This document shows positions 7,619 to 22,382 of a DNA stretch of 64,000 nt, piece after piece. This DNA is from an uncultured Candidatus Saccharibacteria bacterium (GTDB lineage Bacteria > Patescibacteriota > Saccharimonadia > Saccharimonadales > Saccharimonadaceae): contig CALCYQ010000001.1 in assembly GCA_937906385.1 (NCBI GenBank), positions 81,632 to 145,631 of the forward strand, read 5' to 3'. Both the position numbers and the translations under genes were made by a program. The notes below the pieces were generated by a model. The model had not been told where the DNA came from, made no database searches, and saw only the letters and a program-made list of their open reading frames with translations. Position 1 is the stretch's first letter; each line of letters starts with the position of its first letter.

Positions 7619-8091
7619 GTATCGATCCGGGCACCGGCATTTGCGGCTTTGGCGTGGTGCAATATGTCACGCATAAGCAGCCGCGCATGGTTACGGCCGG
7701 CGTGATTACTACGCCTGCACATACGCCCGTGGAAGATCGCCTACTGGACATTTATGAATCTCTAAACCAGATTATCGACGAGACGCATCCCGACGAAGTT
7801 TCCATCGAAAAACTCTATTTCAACCAAAATATCACCACTGGTATCACCGTCGCTGAAGCGCGTGGCGTCTGTATTTTAGTCGCCCGTCAGCATAATCTGC
7901 CAATTGCCGAATATACGCCACTCCAAATCAAACAAACTCTTACCGGCTACGGTCGCGCCAATAAAAAACAGATGCAGGAAGCCGTGCGCGAATATCTGCG
8001 CATGCAAGAGGTTGTGAAGCCAGACGACGCCGCTGACGCGCTCGCAGCCGCCATCACCCACGCTCTCATGACGCGCCTAGCCTATCAATAG
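7597..8091 (+). CDS. ruvC: Crossover junction endodeoxyribonuclease RuvC
   Basis: VLGIDPGTGICGFGVV N-terminal motif, catalytic acidic residues, 164 aa. Overlaps the previous gene by 22 nt. Confidence 0.9.
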   Translation: MSTKRVLGIDPGTGICGFGVVQYVTHKQPRMVTAGVITTPAHTPVEDRLLDIYESLNQIIDETHPDEVSIEKLYFNQNITTGITVAEARGVCILVARQHNLPIAEYTPLQIKQTLTGYGRANKKQMQEAVREYLRMQEVVKPDDAADALAAAITHALMTRLAYQ

Positions 8092-8100
8092 CGCTTATTC

Positions 8101-8129
8101 TTGACAAAAAAGCAAATCTGTGATAAAAT
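8101..8129 (+). promoter_or_regulatory. Sigma70-type promoter for the SleB-like gene
   Basis: TTGACA (8101-8106), 17-nt spacer, TGaTAAAAT (-10 at 8124-8129). Confidence 0.5.
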
Positions 8130-8217
8130 AATAAGATGCGAGCGTTTTTAAGGCTCGCGATCTTTAAGAGAGTACGCATAAATAGTTCCAAAAGTATTAA
8201 GGAGGGGATTATACCTT

Positions 8218-15222: not shown

Positions 15223-15248
15223 TACCCCCGCTGAGGGGGTATTTTTTT
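15223..15248. terminator. Bidirectional intrinsic terminator
   Basis: taccccc/gggggta stem with gctga loop, A-run on the left and T7 on the right. Lies between convergent genes. Confidence 0.75.
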
Positions 15249-16248
15249 ATTCCAAACCTAAGTGTTTTTTCGCAAGGTCTGTCACGACGCGTCCGCGTGG
15301 CGTGCGCTGCAACATGCCAAGCTGAATCAAAAACGGCTCTAAATAATCTTCAATCGTCGAGGCTTCGTCGCCGGTTAGTGCTGCAATTGTATTTAGGCCG
15401 ACTGGTTTATCGCCGTATTTCTCAATCATCAATGTGAGCATGTTGCGGTCGGCCGGATCCAGGCCGAGCTCGTCAATCTCCAGCATGTCGAGCGCCTTTT
15501 TGGCGGTCGGCACATCTACGATACCATCACCATTCACGTCGGCGTAATCGCGCACACGCTTCAAAAGCCTGTTCGCGATGCGCGGCGTCAGGCGTGAGCG
15601 GGTGGCTAGCAACCTTGCGGCATCCGCGTCAATTTTAGTATCCAAAATCTTGGCCGAGCGCTCGATGATTTGCTGTATATCGCCATCGGCATAATACTCC
15701 AAGCGGTACGAATGACCAAAGCGATCGCGTAGCGGCCCAGCCAAATTGCCGGCTTGTGTGGTGGCGCCAATCAAAGTAAAGCGGGGAAGGTCGAGCTTCA
15801 CGCTGCGCGCGGCCGGTCCTTTACCAATCACGATATCAAGCTTGTAATCTTCCATCGCGGAGTAAAGAATCTCCTCCACGGCGCGGCGCAAACGATGAAT
15901 CTCGTCAATAAATAAAATGTCGCCATCGGTCAAGTTTGTCAGGATACTAGCAAGGTCGCCAGCTTTCTCAATCGACGGGGCAGAAGTAGCACGAAAATTT
16001 GCATTCATCTCGTGCGCAATCACGCCGGCCATAGTAGTCTTGCCAAGGCCTGGCGGACCATACAGAAGCACGTGATCCATTACATCGCCGCGTTTTTTCG
16101 CGGCATCAATCGCGAGCTTCAAATTAGTCTTCAAACGACGCTGGCCAATATATTCGTCAAAATTAGTCGGGCGCAGAGAAAACTCAACGGCACGTTCTTC
16201 GTTGTCGTCTTCGTGTAGACTGGTATCAATCACCCTCTCGATAGCCAT
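15247..16248 (-). CDS. ruvB: Holliday junction DNA helicase RuvB
   Basis: AAA+ Walker A (GPPGLGKTT), Walker B ([10 protein letters not shown]), RuvB C-terminal winged helix. Leaderless geometry on the minus strand: TGcTATAAT is the complement of 16255-16263, ATG at 16248. Confidence 0.95.
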
Positions 16249-16282
16249 ATCTGTATTATAGCACCTATGGTATAATAACTTA

Positions 16283-16349
16283 CAGAGGGATAGCTCTAGA
16301 AACTATCCCGATGGTTTGGATGAGTTAGCCTTTAGCTAACTCATTTTTT
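16283..16349 (+). ncRNA. sRNA unit 1 of a four-copy family (candidate antisense/antitoxin RNA)
   Basis: TGgTATAAT 16268-16276. Hairpin gggatag-CTCTAGAAA-ctatccc 16287-16309. Linker GATGGTTTGG. Terminator atgagttagc/gctaactcat plus T6 ending at 16349. The 5' end is predicted, not mapped. Confidence 0.55.
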
Positions 16350-16415
16350 CTAAACAAACCGGATACGGATTCGTAACTCCACTATCCACACTCGAATAGT
16401 AATCGTCACGTTCAT
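16350..16415 (-). CDS. Mini-ORF 1, 21 aa (MNVTITIRVWIVELRIRIRFV), candidate type I toxin-like peptide
   Basis: SD GAGGAAGG immediately upstream. The stop abuts the sRNA-1 terminator. Homologous to mini-ORFs 2 and 4, with synonymous codon differences. Confidence 0.45.
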   Translation of the reverse strand: MNVTITIRVWIVELRIRIRFV

Positions 16416-16587
16416 CCTTCCTCAGAGCGTCTAGTTATCTAGAATCCTGTTCATTGAAGCTCTGCGAGCTCAACAACAACTTCAATGCCAGCCCAAACCA
16501 TTAAGACACCATGCGGTGCGTTTCTGACTATATAGTCAATTACAAAACCGACAAGCATAAGTGCAATGGTTTTGGTATAATAGCATT

Positions 16588-16658
16588 AATGAGCGCAACT
16601 CTAGAAATTACGCTCGATGGTTTGGTTCGTCGCTATTTAATTAGCGACGAATTTTTTT
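16588..16658 (+). ncRNA. sRNA unit 2
   Basis: TGgTATAAT 16573-16581. Hairpin gagcgcaa-CTCTAGAAA-ttacgctc 16591-16615. Linker GATGGTTTGG. Terminator ttcgtcgcta/tagcgacgaa plus T7. Confidence 0.55.
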
Positions 16659-16721
16659 GAATTTCGGAAATCGAATTCCAAACTCCACACTGACGCCTAG
16701 GATAATTATCCGTACGCTCAT
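16641..16721 (-). CDS. Mini-ORF 2, 26 aa (MSVRIIILGVSVEFGIRFPKFKKIRR)
   Basis: SD GGAGGAA (complement of 16731-16737). The last 6 codons run through the sRNA-2 terminator hairpin. Confidence 0.45.
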   Translation of the reverse strand: MSVRIIILGVSVEFGIRFPKFKKIRR

Positions 16722-16898
16722 GTAAAGCACTTCCTCCGAGACCTCTAGCTATCTAGAATTACCGTTCAATGAAGCCTCAGCGAGCCGGGTTTCATTTGCG
16801 AATCGCAGGAACATTCAAACGGAGCAAACCTCAACCCCGAGCGAAAAGCTACCGTCAATCAATCGACAGCACAAGCATAAATACGATATAATATTATC

Positions 16899-16963
16899 AT
16901 TGAGAATAGCTCTAGAAACTATCCTCGGGTTGTTTTAGTTAGCCGTTACCGGCTAACTTTTTT
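16899..16963 (+). ncRNA. sRNA unit 3 (partner ORF deleted)
   Basis: TATAAT 16887-16892. Hairpin gagaatag-CTCTAGAAA-ctatcctc 16902-16926. Linker GGGTTGTTTT. Terminator agttagccg/cggctaact plus T5. Confidence 0.5.
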
Positions 16964-17031
16964 CGGCTTACGCACGAATCGAATTTCGGATTTCAACTAA
17001 GCATAAGTTCAAGATTTGGTATAATAACATT

Positions 17032-17102
17032 ATGGGCGCGTAACTAGGATTACGCCCAAAGTTTTGGTTTAAGTGACTCTCCTAACGGCGAGCCACTTTT
17101 TT
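17032..17102 (+). ncRNA. sRNA unit 4 (diverged copy)
   Basis: TGgTATAAT 17017-17025. Bulged hairpin gggcg(cg)taa-CTAGGA-ttacgccc 17034-17057. Linker AAAGTTTTGGTTTA. Imperfect terminator 17073-17096 plus T6. Confidence 0.5.
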
Positions 17103-17165
17103 ACGCTTCGTCACATCGATACTTAGCGTAACTCTCACGATCCACAACTTAATGCAGACACTCAA
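17082..17165 (-). CDS. Mini-ORF 4, 27 aa, TTG start (MSVCIKLWIVRVTLSIDVTKRKKVARR)
   Basis: SD GAAAGGAG with a 5-nt spacer to TTG. The 3' 21 nt lie inside the sRNA-4 terminator. Aligns with mini-ORF 2 (MSV.I....V.V...I...K.KK..RR). Confidence 0.4.
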   Translation of the reverse strand: MSVCIKLWIVRVTLSIDVTKRKKVARR

Positions 17166-17330
17166 ATCACTCCTTTCCCATGGACTCTAGCGAGGCCTAG
17201 TATGCTGTTTATTGAGTCCATGCGAGATGAACTTAATATTTGCGTAAGGGATAAACCAAGATTCCCGACTCAAAATAGCGTCAATAAAAATCGATTAAAA
17301 GCATAAGTTCAAGATTTTTCGCACAAACCC

Positions 17331-17564
17331 TATAAAAACAGATATAATAAAGGTGGAACTTACAATTTAACAATATATCGCGTTTTAGCTGACGCATTTT
17401 CGCGTTGCAAAAACTTTGATTGCAGCTCCCATAGGAGTCGGTCTTATAGTTTTTGCCTAAAACGCGAAATTGTAGGTTCCAGCCGGCGACTTGGGGGCTG
17501 CAATTTTTATTAAATTGCTGTGCCAAAAAATTATCAAACATAAGAGTAATTGGAACCTACGATT
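17331..17564 (+). promoter_or_regulatory. Promoter(s) and about 220-nt structured 5' leader of the Type III mod gene
   Basis: TTCAAG-17-TATAAA (17308-17336) and gaTATAAT (17343-17348). Helices: 17355-17366 with 17469-17480; 17379-17387 with 17458-17466; 17420-17430 with 17493-17503 followed by T5. Box GGAACCTAC is repeated at 17552-17560, directly before the ATG. Confidence 0.5.
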
Positions 17565-19478
17565 ATGAGCAGCCTCATTGAACTGCTACCAAAGGTAGTC
17601 AGTGAGGGGCGCAGAGAAGCAAATAGAATTTTGGACGGACTTTCTGCTGCGTCCCGTATTACTTTACAAACTAATGAACTTATTCAGCCGCACAAGGACC
17701 GCAGTCAGGCAGAAATCCTCAACGACGATATTGAATATGTTGACGATTGGAAGAATCGCCTAGTCTATGGCGATAATCTACTAGTCATGCAGGCACTTTT
17801 GGCTGGCGACCCGGCTTCGGGCCTACCTAGCATGCGCGGCAAAATTGACTTGATTTATATTGATCCGCCATATGATAGCAAGGCAGATTATCGTACGAAA
17901 ATAGAACTTCCGGGTGCGAATATTGACAGTAAACCGACCGTGCTTGAGCAGTTTGCTTACGCTGACACTTGGAGTGCGAACATTGATGGCGAAGACGTGA
18001 AGGGTACAGCTGCTTATTTAAAATATATGTATCCGCGGTTGGTAGTTATGAGAGAGCTCTTAAGTGAGCGGGGCAATATATGTGTTCATCTAGATTATCA
18101 TGTCGGCGCGTATATGCGCGTAATACTTGATGATATATTTGGTAAGGAAAATTTAAAAAATGAAATAATATGGGGCTATTCTGGCGGAGGAGTTTCAAAG
18201 AATAAATTTGCCCAGAAGCACGATACACTTTATTGTTACGCGAAAAGTAATGATTCGATTTTTAATGCTCAATATGCGCCATATTCTGAAAAATCCCAAG
18301 CTCTCATTAACTCAAGAGGAGGAACTAGTATTGATGGAAAAGAAAGAGATTTGGGCCGCGGAAAACATATGGAGGACTGGTGGGGCGATATACAATCACT
18401 TCAAACGTTTGATACGGAACGAGTTAATTATGGAACTCAGAAGCCAGAAAAACTATTGGAAAGAATAGAAAAGGCTTTTTCGAATAATGGCTCTATCGTC
18501 GCCGATTTCTTTGGCGGCTCCGGCACTACTGCTGCGGTAGCGGAAAAACTTGGCCGTAAATGGATTACTTCGGACATCGGCAAACCTGCCACTATGATTA
18601 TGCGCAAACGTTTCATCGATAACGACGCTGGTGAATTTCTATATCAATCCGTTGGCGATTATCAGCGCGAGCAAATGAGTACAAACTTTGGTACACGTTT
18701 CCGCGTTGGTGATTTAAATCAAATCGTCATTAACTTGTATGGTGCTGTTCCGTTCCGCGAAGAAGATAATCCGCGTCGCAACTTAGGCAAAATTCCGCGC
18801 ACGAAACGTCTCGTTTATGTCGCTTCGCCGTCGGAATTAGTTTCGGCAAATACCATCAAACGCGCGCTTGATGAAATGAATACTTTTCAGGGCGGATGGG
18901 ATAAAGTTGCATTGCTCGGCTGGAATTTCCGTAGCGACCTTGGCGCATATTTGGAAACGCTCGAAGAATACAAGAATGGTACGCTGACGATTGAAATTAT
19001 CCCGCCAGATCTTCTCGACCAATTGAAGAGCAAAACTACGTTTAAGAAACTTAGCGACCAAGTTGCGGTCGATCCAGACGGTACAATTCGTACACCAGTT
19101 CGCTTCTCATCACTCCAGTATCTCACCATTAAAGACCCAATCGTGAACGGCAACGAAATTACTGTAGAGCTAGATAACTATGTAATTTTATCTTCGGATT
19201 CTTTGCCACTCGATTCCAAGAATAAAGAAAAAATGAATGAAGTTATTGCGCGTGACCCGCTTGCACTAATTGAATATTGGTCTATCGATACCGACTTTGA
19301 CGGCAACGTCTTCCGCAGTACTTGGCAGGATTATCGCCAAAATACCGATAACGATAGTGACGCACTGCATGTCGTAAACAAAGTTACGCTCCCGCTTAAC
19401 AATACAACTGGCCTTATTGCTATCAGGGCAGTAGACGTCTTTGGCTTTGAAAGTGAAGTAATTGCAAGGATTGATTGA
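17565..19478 (+). CDS. mod: Type III restriction-modification DNA methyltransferase (Mod), N6-adenine/N4-cytosine beta class
   Basis: Motif [12 protein letters not shown] precedes motif [24 protein letters not shown]. About 640 aa and immediately followed by res. Start taken at ATG 17565 rather than TTG 17550. Confidence 0.9.
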
Positions 19479-19481
19479 TAT

Positions 19482-22382
19482 ATGGAAATTGACGAACAAA
19501 AACGCTACAAATATCCTCCACTAGCCTTTGCGAAGGCCGTAACTGAACGCGCCAAAGCAGCCTGGGAAGACGGCAGCTTTATGGAATCTGTCACACCAAC
19601 TACGCGCGCATTGTTAACTTACTGGTTCGACGATGCTTATGTAGATATGCGCGACCTGAACTTCCATATTGGGCAGCGTAATGCCATCATGAATATTATT
19701 TATATTCATGAAGTGCTCAAAAAAGATAAAGTTGTTGATGTTTATAATGAAATCGCTCCGCAGCTCCTATTGGAACGTGGCGGTACAAAGTTGAGTGAAC
19801 TTGGCGACGATATTTATTCCTTCCCAAAATACTGCGTAAAAATGGCAACCGGTACCGGTAAAACTTGGGTGCTTGAAGCCTTAATGATTTGGCAATACTT
19901 AAATGCCAAACATAACGAAGAAGGAAACTATACTAAGAATTTCCTCGTTGTTGCGCCTGGCTTAATCGTCTATGAACGTTTGCTCGATGCGTTCCTCGGC
20001 AAAATGAACGACGATGGCCAAACTCGCAATTTCGAAACGTGTGATATTAAGAAATTCGAGAATCTATTTTTGCCAGAAGAATACCGTAATGAATTTTACG
20101 GTTTTTTGCAGAGTAGCGTAGCCGCCAAAACCGAAATTGGTAGTAAAGTTACCGGTGATGGTTTAATTGCTATTACAAACTTTCATTTACTCATGGGGGC
20201 AGATGAGCAAGAAGACGAACCGGGCATTGACGACGGTTGGCGCTTGCCGGTTGCTCCGGGTATTACGGCGGGAAATAGCCTAGATTCGTTAGATAATTCG
20301 CTCCGCGGTAAAAAGGAGCTCGAATTCCTACACAATCTTCCGGACCTTATGATGATTAACGACGAGGCCCATCACATTCACGACAATATAAAGGGTGGTG
20401 AAAAGGAAGAAGTTGAATGGCAAAAATCTTTGCGCTACATCGCCGAAGGCAAAGCTAATCGTGCTATGCAGTTAGATTTTTCCGCCACGCCATACAACCA
20501 AAAGGGCAAAGAAAAAGTTTATTTTCCACACATTGTTGTAGATTTCGATTTAACTGACGCGATTCGTCGTGGTTTAGTGAAAACTTTGATGCTTTCCGAG
20601 CGTAAAGAATTAGCAACTGAGGCTCTAGTTTTTAAAGCTGTGCGCAATGATCGCGGCGAGGTGGTGGATTTGTCTGATGGTCAACGCCAAATGCTTCGCG
20701 CCGGTCTTTCGAAACTAGCAAAACTCGAAGAAGAGTTTAGGGATGTCGATTCGACCAAACGACCAAAGATGATGGTAGTTTGTGAAGATACAAACGTAGT
20801 ACCGTTAGTTGCAAATTTTCTAAAGCTCGAAGGTTTAAGTCAAGAAGAATTTATAGAAATTCACAGCAATAAGAAAGGCGAAGTTGGCGAAGAAGAGTGG
20901 AATAATCTTCGCAACAAATTATTCGCGCTCGATCGTCACGAGAACCCACGCGTGGTTATTTCTGTTTTAATGCTTCGCGAAGGTTTTGACGTTAATAATA
21001 TCTGCGTTATCGTTCCGCTACGTAGTACAACTTCCGGAATTCTTCTAGAACAAACAATCGGTCGCGGTCTGCGCTTGATGTGGCGTGGCAATAAAGAAAT
21101 CGACGAGCTCAAAAATGAGAACCGTCGCGCGATTATGGTCGAGCATAAGGCGGCAACTAATTATTTCGACGTCTTATCGATCGTAGAACATCCGGCATTT
21201 CGCGATTTCTACGACGAGTTAGTAAACGGCGGCTTAATGGGTGTCGAGGATGGCGATGAAGAACTTGGAGACGATGGTAGGAAAGTTAAAGGCGACTTAA
21301 TTCCAGTCGGATTAAAAGACGATTATATGGATTACGATTTTCGCCTTCCGTTAATTATTAATGAGGCGGAGTCTGTCATGAAAACTCCATCGTTAGATGT
21401 TACGAAATTGAAACCATTCGGGATGAGCTATGACGCGCTTATCAAAATGATTCCAGAACGCGAGCAGTGGATTGATCAAGAAGTACTCAGCGGTGTTAAT
21501 GCTGGCTATTTCGAGGTGACATCCGGAGTATTTCGCTCTACTAGCTATAACGATTATCTAAGCCGTATTACGAATCATATCGTCGAAAAACTAAATACCG
21601 CCGACAGTCTTGGCCGTAGCCGTAAGGCATTAGATTTTCCTATTCTGTCTATTAATAATGTTCAAATTGCCGCATTAATAGATAAATATATTCGCAAGCA
21701 ATTATTTGGGCGCGAAATTAATCCAGCCGAAGGGAAGAACTGGAAGGCATTATTAATTACGGAAGTAATGAATCATATTATTGGGCAAATAGCTTCCGCT
21801 ATCATCGCCTCGCAAGAAGAGGCGGAGAATGTGGGCGAGACGAATGTAGTCTTTACGCCATTCTCAAGCGTAAATAAAATCACTGTTCGCGAAAACTATA
21901 GCCTAGATTTAGCAAAGTGCATCTACGAAAAGTGTCCATTCCCGAGCAATAAGGGCCAATATGAGCGCGATTTTATGGAATTTTGCGACAAAGATGGCGA
22001 GGTGGACGCTCTGTGCAAAGTGATAGAAAACCGCCATACTTTTGCTCGTTTTCGCTACGTGCGCGAAGATGGTATGCCGGCAGAATATATTCCTGATTTT
22101 GTAGTGCGTATTGGTAGCGATAATTATCTAGTAGAGACTAAATCTCAAGATCAAATATCGCACCAAAACGTCATCCGCAAAAAACGCGCAGCACTTCGTT
22201 GGGTTGAAAGAATTAATGACTTACCGCTCGGTAAGCGTGAAGATATTACCTGGCATTACGTACTCCTCGGCGACGCCACATTTTATGAATGGAAACGTAA
22301 AAATATGACAATTCGCGAGTTGCTAGAGTTCGCCGAAATTCGTAACAACGATGAGTTAAACTTCACTGGAAAATTATTCTAA
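19482..22382 (+). CDS. res: Type III restriction enzyme Res subunit (SF2 helicase plus PD-(D/E)xK nuclease)
   Basis: Walker A MATGTGKTW, DEAH box (MMINDEAHH), helicase motif VI (QTIGRGLR), C-terminal nuclease motif YIPDF..LVETK. Confidence 0.9.
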   Translation: MEIDEQKRYKYPPLAFAKAVTERAKAAWEDGSFMESVTPTTRALLTYWFDDAYVDMRDLNFHIGQRNAIMNIIYIHEVLKKDKVVDVYNEIAPQLLLERGGTKLSELGDDIYSFPKYCVKMATGTGKTWVLEALMIWQYLNAKHNEEGNYTKNFLVVAPGLIVYERLLDAFLGKMNDDGQTRNFETCDIKKFENLFLPEEYRNEFYGFLQSSVAAKTEIGSKVTGDGLIAITNFHLLMGADEQEDEPGIDDGWRLPVAPGITAGNSLDSLDNSLRGKKELEFLHNLPDLMMINDEAHHIHDNIKGGEKEEVEWQKSLRYIAEGKANRAMQLDFSATPYNQKGKEKVYFPHIVVDFDLTDAIRRGLVKTLMLSERKELATEALVFKAVRNDRGEVVDLSDGQRQMLRAGLSKLAKLEEEFRDVDSTKRPKMMVVCEDTNVVPLVANFLKLEGLSQEEFIEIHSNKKGEVGEEEWNNLRNKLFALDRHENPRVVISVLMLREGFDVNNICVIVPLRSTTSGILLEQTIGRGLRLMWRGNKEIDELKNENRRAIMVEHKAATNYFDVLSIVEHPAFRDFYDELVNGGLMGVEDGDEELGDDGRKVKGDLIPVGLKDDYMDYDFRLPLIINEAESVMKTPSLDVTKLKPFGMSYDALIKMIPEREQWIDQEVLSGVNAGYFEVTSGVFRSTSYNDYLSRITNHIVEKLNTADSLGRSRKALDFPILSINNVQIAALIDKYIRKQLFGREINPAEGKNWKALLITEVMNHIIGQIASAIIASQEEAENVGETNVVFTPFSSVNKITVRENYSLDLAKCIYEKCPFPSNKGQYERDFMEFCDKDGEVDALCKVIENRHTFARFRYVREDGMPAEYIPDFVVRIGSDNYLVETKSQDQISHQNVIRKKRAALRWVERINDLPLGKREDITWHYVLLGDATFYEWKRKNMTIRELLEFAEIRNNDELNFTGKLF

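Follow-up and report, generated by a model that had tools for sequence, protein, structure and literature searches.

What controls a Type III restriction-modification (R-M) operon when the DNA ahead of it holds no regulator gene? This question is raised by a stretch of 64,000 nucleotides (referred to here as the window) from an uncultured Candidatus Saccharibacteria bacterium, in which the methyltransferase gene mod and the restriction gene res follow a leader RNA of about 210 nt. R-M systems are known to be controlled by controller (C) proteins, antisense RNAs or phase variation, and in the Saccharibacteria, which are episymbionts with tiny genomes, regulation is almost unstudied. In the genome of the window (G000; 962 kb, 99% complete), ruvB (15247-16248, - strand) is followed by a 1.3-kb gap free of open reading frames (ORFs) and then by mod, res and a DUF2726 gene. 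On the + strand of 16250-17564, ahead of mod, there is neither a conserved ORF nor a small helix-turn-helix (HTH) gene of the C-protein kind. The original prediction placed in this gap a structured leader with a triplicated box (a, a' and a'') and competing helices, one of which would lie over the mod start codon.

Sequence comparison indicates that the leader is real and conserved, that it has two evolutionarily supported folds and that it is absent from Rfam. Conservation, covariation of both sets of helices, near-equal stabilities of the two folds, strand specificity and association with a set of genes are all seen in the data presented below. The reading favoured here, by a modest measure, is that the leader is a self-contained cis-acting attenuator combined with a start-codon sequestor, the trigger of which is not evident.

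All of the box and helix coordinates first given for the leader (a, a', a'', b, and d followed by TTTTT at 17504-17508) match the sequence, and a repeat finder retrieves the same arms, slightly longer. Folding was run on 17350-17512, on 17350-17600 and on the 156-nt transcript 17353-17508. The minimum free energy of 17350-17512 is -60.5 kcal/mol, against -38.0 +/- 3.8 kcal/mol for shuffled sequences (z = -6.0, 0 of 200 as good), and for 17350-17600, which includes the start of mod, the folding z-score is -6.6. The minimum-energy fold is built as a long domain around a three-way junction: a:a', then a bulge of 10 nt, b:b', hairpin h1, helix c (GCAAAAACU/AGUUUUUGC) and, at the apex, a small hairpin. 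Six elements are additional to those of the original prediction: h1, helix c, the inner hairpin, box a*, helix e and hairpin f.

Homologues were collected with a DNA query on 201 genomes of the same family, from the mod loci of 15 other Saccharibacteria assemblies, with a pattern scan of metagenomes and with a covariance model, which was built and has 29 full-length leader copies in related Saccharibacteria genomes and metagenomes. With the DNA query, convincing full-length copies were found only in the genus of the window, in four of its six genomes; likewise, the covariance model matched only this genus when run on 151 family-level and 151 class-level genomes. The leader family as defined here is narrow. 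The metagenome pattern (GTAGGTTCCARCCG..GGGCT) returned 107 stretches, and among the stretches read from the metagenome and viral scans there were 21 true leaders, all of them metagenomic. No true copy was present on viral contigs, where all ten pattern matches were chance matches in coding DNA. Within G000, a search for other copies of any leader box, which might act as a partner in trans, found none, and an exact-word search for other triple-box leaders gave chance matches in coding DNA only. All 29 copies have one orientation with respect to the gene behind them, and no copy is inverted.

Conservation and covariation of the boxes had been set beforehand as one test of the prediction, and both were found in the 29 copies, for the nested helices and for helix d. 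In the alignment (A3, 29 sequences; helices a, b, h1 and c with the crossing helix d), 96.3% of cells are paired and 18 pairs show double changes. The covariation observed in these helices was reached by none of 500 shuffles, and controls with slid partners are 32-49% paired. Helix a is 97.8% paired, with compensatory changes in two pairs, and in helix b four of nine pairs are compensatory, CGCG/CGCG becoming CACA/UGUG in diverged copies. In helix c, GCAAAAACU changes to GCAGAAACU with a matching change on the opposite strand, GCAGAAACU/AGUUUCUGC in L067 and L089 being compensatory. Helix d was left out of the structure of the covariance model used for search and alignment; it is nonetheless 100% paired, with compensatory changes in six of 11 pairs (eight of 16 when extended), as in UUGCAGC/GCUGCAA, UCGCAGC/GCUGCGA, UUCCAGC/GCUGGAA and AUGUAGC/GCUACAU. 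Compensatory changes are seen in five helices of this alignment; hairpin f has one as well (GCAGUUU/AAACUGU in L059). G-U pairs outnumber A-C mismatches by 95 to 14 (67 to 4 in reliably aligned rows), so that what is under selection is the + strand RNA and not a palindrome in the DNA. The alternative pairing of 17461-17469 with 17398-17406 that had been proposed is lost in diverged copies. A single co-change in L083 between AUAAG, ahead of a'', and the apical CUUAU is too weak for a claim of pairing.

The second fold was obtained by forcing helix d in the nested fold of the 156-nt transcript. It is one long hairpin composed of d extended to 14 bp, helix e and a pairing of a* with a', and it ends at the U-run. 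The two folds differ by 0.2-4 kcal/mol in class A copies. In the window copy the closed domain (fold 1) has -58.9 kcal/mol and the terminator hairpin (fold 2) -56.4 kcal/mol; the corresponding values are -60.1 and -59.9 in G149 (a gap of 0.2) and -54.1 and -49.8 in L029 (a gap of 4.3). Across the alignment, fold 2 as a whole is 92.6% paired, compared with 37-50% in slid controls. The pairing a*:a' is 94.4% paired over the 29 sequences, with one-sided changes only, and helix e has one compensatory change between types, the G-C of class A being A-U in A2, as judged by eye. The apparently unpaired CUUAUAG, CGGUCUUAUAG and AGCCGG are strands of e and a*:a' in this second fold, which explains their conservation. 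The conserved 'loop' positions are therefore explained by alternative pairing and are not a ligand pocket.

Helix d has the form of an intrinsic terminator, a stem and U-run between promoter and ORF, in that its 11-14 bp abut UUUUU 57 nt before the AUG. A local hairpin, CAGCC/GGCUG, was also considered as terminator and rejected, as it is not kept in A2-type copies (by eye). The nested terminator fold (d, e and a*:a') excludes a, b and c, whereas d alone could coexist with these three as a pseudoknot, so that the statement that the leader cannot form all of its helices at once was not strictly true. The suggestion that its options resemble a terminator/antiterminator and a sequestor/anti-sequestor choice has gained comparative support as far as the competing helices are concerned.

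In all 27 copies that have a'', its GGAACCUAC is invariant, ahead of different genes; across these copies a'' ends 1-5 nt before the start codon and is a perfect complement of a'. In the window copy the duplex a'':a' (-21.4 kcal/mol) is stronger than a:a' (-19.8 kcal/mol), and throughout class A the values are -21.4 to -23.5 kcal/mol for a'':a' and -17.8 to -19.9 kcal/mol for a:a'. When the full leader is folded, the a:a' conformer has -83.0 and the a'':a' conformer -80.2 kcal/mol, a gap of 2.8; a transcript ending at the AUG favours a'':a' in folding. From the fold models, a' would be a hub with three possible partners: the 5'-terminal a, the apical a* and the start-codon box a''. Most class A copies keep a fixed spacer of 39-40 nt between a'' and the point, 4 nt beyond the U-run, at which the model match ends. 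An in-frame TTG within a'' was considered as an alternative start (17549-17567, adding MEPTI) but is probably unused, its frame being broken in A2-type copies and in L149, which argues that a'' is not coding. As originally noted, no Shine-Dalgarno (SD) sequence precedes the mod ATG. A start of this kind is unexceptional in G000, where only 37-54% of long ORFs have an SD-like 4-mer.

All 29 copies have TATAAT ahead of box a, at a distance of 6-7 nt, which places the expected start of the RNA at that box. Of the two promoter sequences given earlier, TATAAT at 17343-17348 is invariant; the other, TTCAAG-17-TATAAA, is not conserved and reads CGCAAA, CTTAAA and so on in relatives.

Taken together, these features suggest the following course of events. 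From the conserved TATAAT, transcription would yield a leader RNA starting at box a (about 17355), the first 155 nt of which could take either of two folds. In fold 1 the domain closed by a:a', with b, h1, c and the apical hairpin, would leave the 3' strand of d free, and polymerase would read into mod-res. In fold 2 the domain would open, and d (17418-31 with 17492-05), e and a*:a' would make a hairpin at the U-run, with termination 57 nt before the AUG. In those transcripts that are read through, a'', which abuts the AUG, would compete with a for a'. If a'':a' formed, the SD-less start codon would be buried; if a:a' held, it would be free. Promoter, switch and translation start would in this way be carried as one cassette ahead of different defence operons, and the cassette probably keeps the expression of these self-toxic genes low and conditional, with no regulatory protein involved. 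That termination and sequestration take place in the cell is inferred.

The same leader, through a'' and ATG, heads four kinds of defence operon. Two of them encode Type III systems, with Mods of different families (PADLOC MTase_III models 03633 and 03634) and a Res alongside each; the third encodes a DpdF/Cas3-like helicase of 1074 residues and the fourth a Type IIG methylase-nuclease in split form. The leader is therefore not specific to mod, as had been supposed, and a role confined to establishment timing, with mod expressed before res, is unlikely. In G199, two copies 3.5 kb apart (L021 3832-4003 and 7328-7499) head the helicase and the split Type IIG operons; they are identical from the -10 box through a' and have a few base differences beyond. 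This pair suggests a recent duplication or an exchange of cassettes by recombination within the leader.

Several observations weigh against an attenuator with a sequestor. As independent lineages the 29 copies, whose sequences are closely related, count for about five, and there is little or no true covariation in helix e and a*:a'. The A2-type copies disfavour fold 2 by 8-15 kcal/mol; their U-run is interrupted (UUUCGUUU), that of class A being uninterrupted, and the duplexes rank in the reverse order, with a:a' stronger than a'':a'. During transcription fold 1 forms first, and it makes up 97% of the nested ensemble, so that fold 2 would be rare without a trigger. A sensor was sought in the leader, with no leader peptide and no conserved unpaired pocket found. 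On either strand the leader has no conserved ORF, short or otherwise, the longest frames differing in length and frame among homologues (an antisense ORF of 86 amino acids at 17281-17541 was rejected as not conserved), which does not fit a leader-peptide attenuator. Nor does the leader look like a small-molecule riboswitch, since junction and bulge sequences vary.

Much of the same evidence can be accommodated by a single compact pseudoknotted fold without a switch, in which a, b, h1 and c stand together with d (and e) linking the apical loop to the 3' tail; the RNA would then be a leaky constitutive terminator or a stabiliser of the 5' end, or else a stable small RNA (sRNA) or a scaffold for protein binding that is produced in larger amounts than the mRNA. 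All helices do covary in the same sequences, d costs no more than the inner hairpin of 5 bp (-5.7 kcal/mol) while its own duplex is worth about -22 kcal/mol, and in every copy a is joined to the rest flexibly, through a bulge of 9-15 nt or an additional hairpin, which would permit fold-back. The G149 copy, which lacks a'' and an adjoining ORF, keeps d through a compensatory change of its own, and the DUF3800-type motifs (PMC5737381) are likewise elaborate terminator-ending RNAs of unassigned function. A single fold would, however, leave unexplained both the complementarity of a* to a' and the invariant a'', a copy of a, at the start codons of unrelated genes, and the linker between the end of a' and the 3' strand of d is only 12 nt. 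It is considered rather unlikely, both as a structure and in the roles that it would imply. Attenuation by a countertranscript, in the style of pT181 and pIP501, would supply the missing trigger and the timing function: an antisense RNA from the minus strand would pair with the nascent 5' half and force the terminator, expression being high on arrival in a new cell and dropping as the antisense RNA accumulates. The leader logic of 5' box, preemptor and terminator fits these plasmid systems as they are established, and a minus-strand TTGATA-17-TTTAAT (17511-17539), the -35 of which is the reverse complement of TATCAA at 17532-17537 (+), occurs at the same position in 14 close class A copies and would give an RNA complementary to the region from the 3' strand of d through a. 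Its -10, however, lacks the critical A at position 2 and is not called by a promoter scan, the motif is absent from G149, from G199-type copies and from all A2-type copies, and the conservation of TTTAAT is already accounted for by hairpin f and the U-run. Both the antisense RNA and the expression course that it would impose are accordingly improbable.

An element acting at the level of DNA would need no RNA fold at all, with a, a' and a'' as recombination or inversion sites, or the leader as a homology arm for cassette swaps. Identical leader with a'' and ATG is indeed joined to unrelated genes, the near-identical G199 copies head different operons, and a and a' lie in inverted orientation on either side of 98 bp. 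Against this, the excess of G-U over A-C (95 to 14; 67 to 4 in reliable rows) means that only the + strand folds, and compensatory changes were found in five helices. The orientation is the same in all 29 copies, which with the strand-specific G-U pairing speaks against an invertible switch; no recombinase gene adjoins the leader among its neighbours in the window, and viral contigs hold no true copies. A function in DNA alone is thus very improbable, and the two-fold attenuator with a sequestor is preferred.

Coordinates in the window of the leader elements and of the genes that follow.
Feature	Position	Strand	Remarks
AAGCATAAGTTCAAG motif upstream of leader promoter	17299-17313	+	Common to neighbouring sRNA units; at least 12 genome copies
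-10 box TATAAT of leader promoter	17343-17348	+	Invariant in 29 of 29 copies; transcript would start at about 17355
Box a, 5' strand of closing helix a, putative RNA 5' end	17355-17368 (core 17355-17366)	+	Pairs with 17467-17481
Hinge: asymmetric bulge of 10 nt separating helices a and b	17369-17378	+	Variable sequence; hairpin instead in A2-type copies
b 5' strand	17379-17389	+	17379-17387 pairs with 17458-17466
Hairpin h1 (GACGC-AUUUUC-GCGUU), branch of three-way junction	17391-17406	+	Four of four modelled pairs covary
c 5' strand (GCAAAAACU)	17407-17415	+	Pairs with 17448-17456
d 5' strand, apical loop of domain	17418-17431	+	Overlaps inner hairpin, 17425-17429 with 17434-17438
e 5' strand (GUCGGU)	17437-17442	+	Partner 17482-17487 in terminator fold; weak support
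Box a* (CUUAUAGUUUUUG)	17443-17455	+	Overlaps c 3' strand; alternative a' partner in terminator fold
c 3' strand (17448-17456) and b 3' strand (17457-17466)	17448-17466	+	Folding and covariation
Box a' (AAAUUGUAGGUUCCA), putative hub for a, a* or a''	17467-17481 (core 17469-17480)	+	Core GUAGGUUCC invariant
e 3' strand (GCCGGC), immediately 3' of a'	17482-17487	+	(A/G)CCG(G/A) kept in all copies
d 3' strand (17492-17505) into U-run (17504-17508)	17492-17508	+	Putative intrinsic terminator
Hairpin f: GCAAUUU (d 3' end and U-run) with AAAUUGC	17500-17518 (17500-17506 with 17512-17518)	+	Compensatory in L059
Conserved AAACAUAAGAGUAAUU ahead of a''	17536-17551	+	Conserved in copies
Box a'' (GGAACCUACGAUU), copy of a	17552-17564	+	Box 17552-17563 ends 1 nt before AUG at 17565; putative sequestor partner of a'
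mod, Type III DNA methyltransferase	17565-19478	+	Pfam N6_N4_Mtase 8e-39; PADLOC MTase_III 2e-77
res, Type III restriction helicase-nuclease	19482-22382	+	Pfam ResIII; PADLOC REase_III 9e-29

Beyond the narrow family, orthologous mod genes in other Saccharibacteria have diverged or non-homologous leaders with a similar layout, sharing a closing helix, a long-range helix with U-run and a box at the start codon; in class C leaders the long-range helix ahead of the U-run has a compensatory change. In the class B leaders L032 and L034, an SD-preceded upstream ORF of ten codons (MSLKNTVKHE*), in the 40 nt preceding the mod ATG at 2501, overlaps the mod start, and its AUG lies within a box, AACGAUGUC, that is complementary to a strand of the leader's inner helix. 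The G149 leader, without a'' and without an ORF directly behind it, is followed by a second leader that is unrelated in sequence (L022 about 7910-8210, - strand). Its design is nevertheless that of the first: behind a TTGACA/TATAAT promoter of its own, the helix GAGUCCUAAUC/GAUUAGGACUC closes the structure and AGCCGG comes next, GUCCUA/UAGGAC boxes recur, there is a local terminator, and a hairpin of 13 bp buries the AUG of a 198-residue ORF. Ahead of distant Type III mod homologues from metagenome-assembled genomes of a Patescibacteria (L041, about 634-1000) and an Aminicenantes (L042, about 1310-1600) member, a small C-protein-like HTH-XRE frame takes the place that the leader RNA has in the Saccharibacteria.

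Upstream of the leader promoter, AAGCATAAGTTCAAG is retained only in the close class A subgroup. A motif AAGCATAAGTTCAAT, often with nTTTTT after it, is found 12 times in the 962-kb genome with at most one mismatch, compared with no matches for the reversed control. Copies are at 16553-16567, 16999-17013 and 17299-17313 in the window and on G000 contigs C1, C4, C6 and C11; they appear to be mostly intergenic, and their distance to -10 boxes, start codons or hairpins varies. The reverse complement of AAGCATAAGTTCAAT contains TTGAAC, and a similar AAACATAAGAGTAAT stands ahead of box a''.

A bistable leader with covariation support, present on several kinds of defence operon, would add a mechanism of RNA folding to R-M control. 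It is a tentative and rather doubtful generalization that R-M and other defence cassettes carry their own RNA-only unit of promoter, bistable attenuator and sequestor, which does the job of a C protein and moves with the cassette. If this were so, the trigger could be a signal of cell state or infection, with expression of defence becoming conditional; possible triggers would include nucleotide pools, acting on the choice of start site in the 5' box, or the opening of the 5' domain by some factor of phage or host. At about 210 nt the RNA is short, it is self-contained, and its boxes are suited to designs with mutants and compensatory mutants.

With regard to known systems, a full-text literature search (including sRNA-Xcc1) found no published description of such leaders. 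The expectation that the leader belongs to no known class was upheld in Rfam 15, where the window and 14 related loci gave only transfer RNAs (tRNAs) at the gathering threshold, and at E <= 10 the interval 16200-17700 gave only two chance eukaryotic matches, outside the leader core. Among elaborate conserved RNAs, the DUF3800-associated motifs I-XI, drum and skipping-rope have been described, among which DUF3800-I, drum and skipping-rope have an intrinsic terminator at their end (Weinberg et al., 2017; PMC5737381). The leader is like these in being an elaborate RNA with a terminator, and DUF3800 genes flank its island in G149, G199 and L073. It is unlike them in having no Rfam match, no DUF3800 gene in G000 and an RNA that is always a 5' untranslated region fused to a start codon. 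The DUF3800 genes (L021 2836-3315 and 13117-13188; L022 8720-9196 and 921-1388; L073 7209-7676) bracket the defence island in G149 and G199, adjoining a tRNA gene, and one matches PADLOC PDC-M04A; tblastn found them in L021, L022 and L073 only, and none in G000.

Regulation of R-M systems by C proteins and antisense RNAs has the same presumed purpose, to limit or time the expression of an operon that moves from host to host, but here there is no regulator ORF, and control would be exerted by cis RNA folding on mod and res together. In hok/sok, too, complementary boxes (tac/fbi and ucb/dcb) recur and allow the mRNA 5' end to compete for a single partner with a box located at the translation start, and the genes are also self-toxic; the leader differs in having no sok-like antisense RNA, 3' processing step or overlapping reading frame, in including a terminator and in heading genes for large enzymes. 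The plasmid rep attenuators (pT181, pIP501 and pAMbeta1) likewise provide RNA-only control of a mobile, dosage-sensitive gene, with a 5' box that pre-empts a terminator near the start codon, although no antisense promoter is conserved across the leader family. Terminator/antiterminator leaders, such as riboswitch platforms, T-box, PyrR/TRAP and Bacillus subtilis pyrG, share a promoter-proximal hairpin and U-run upstream of the ORF, an alternative fold that uses a terminator strand and a second layer at the start codon; in pyrG, moreover, as proposed here, the extreme 5' end of the transcript is the anti-terminating strand. Those leaders serve metabolic genes and not defence genes, and the leader described here has no aptamer pocket, specifier/T-box sequence, protein-binding repeats or leader peptide; its terminator stem is long-range, and the competing domain carries the 5' strand of that stem in its apical loop. 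The closest in logic are the terminator/antiterminator leaders, especially those with an anti-terminating 5' end, together with the plasmid countertranscript attenuators and hok-type mRNA refolding.

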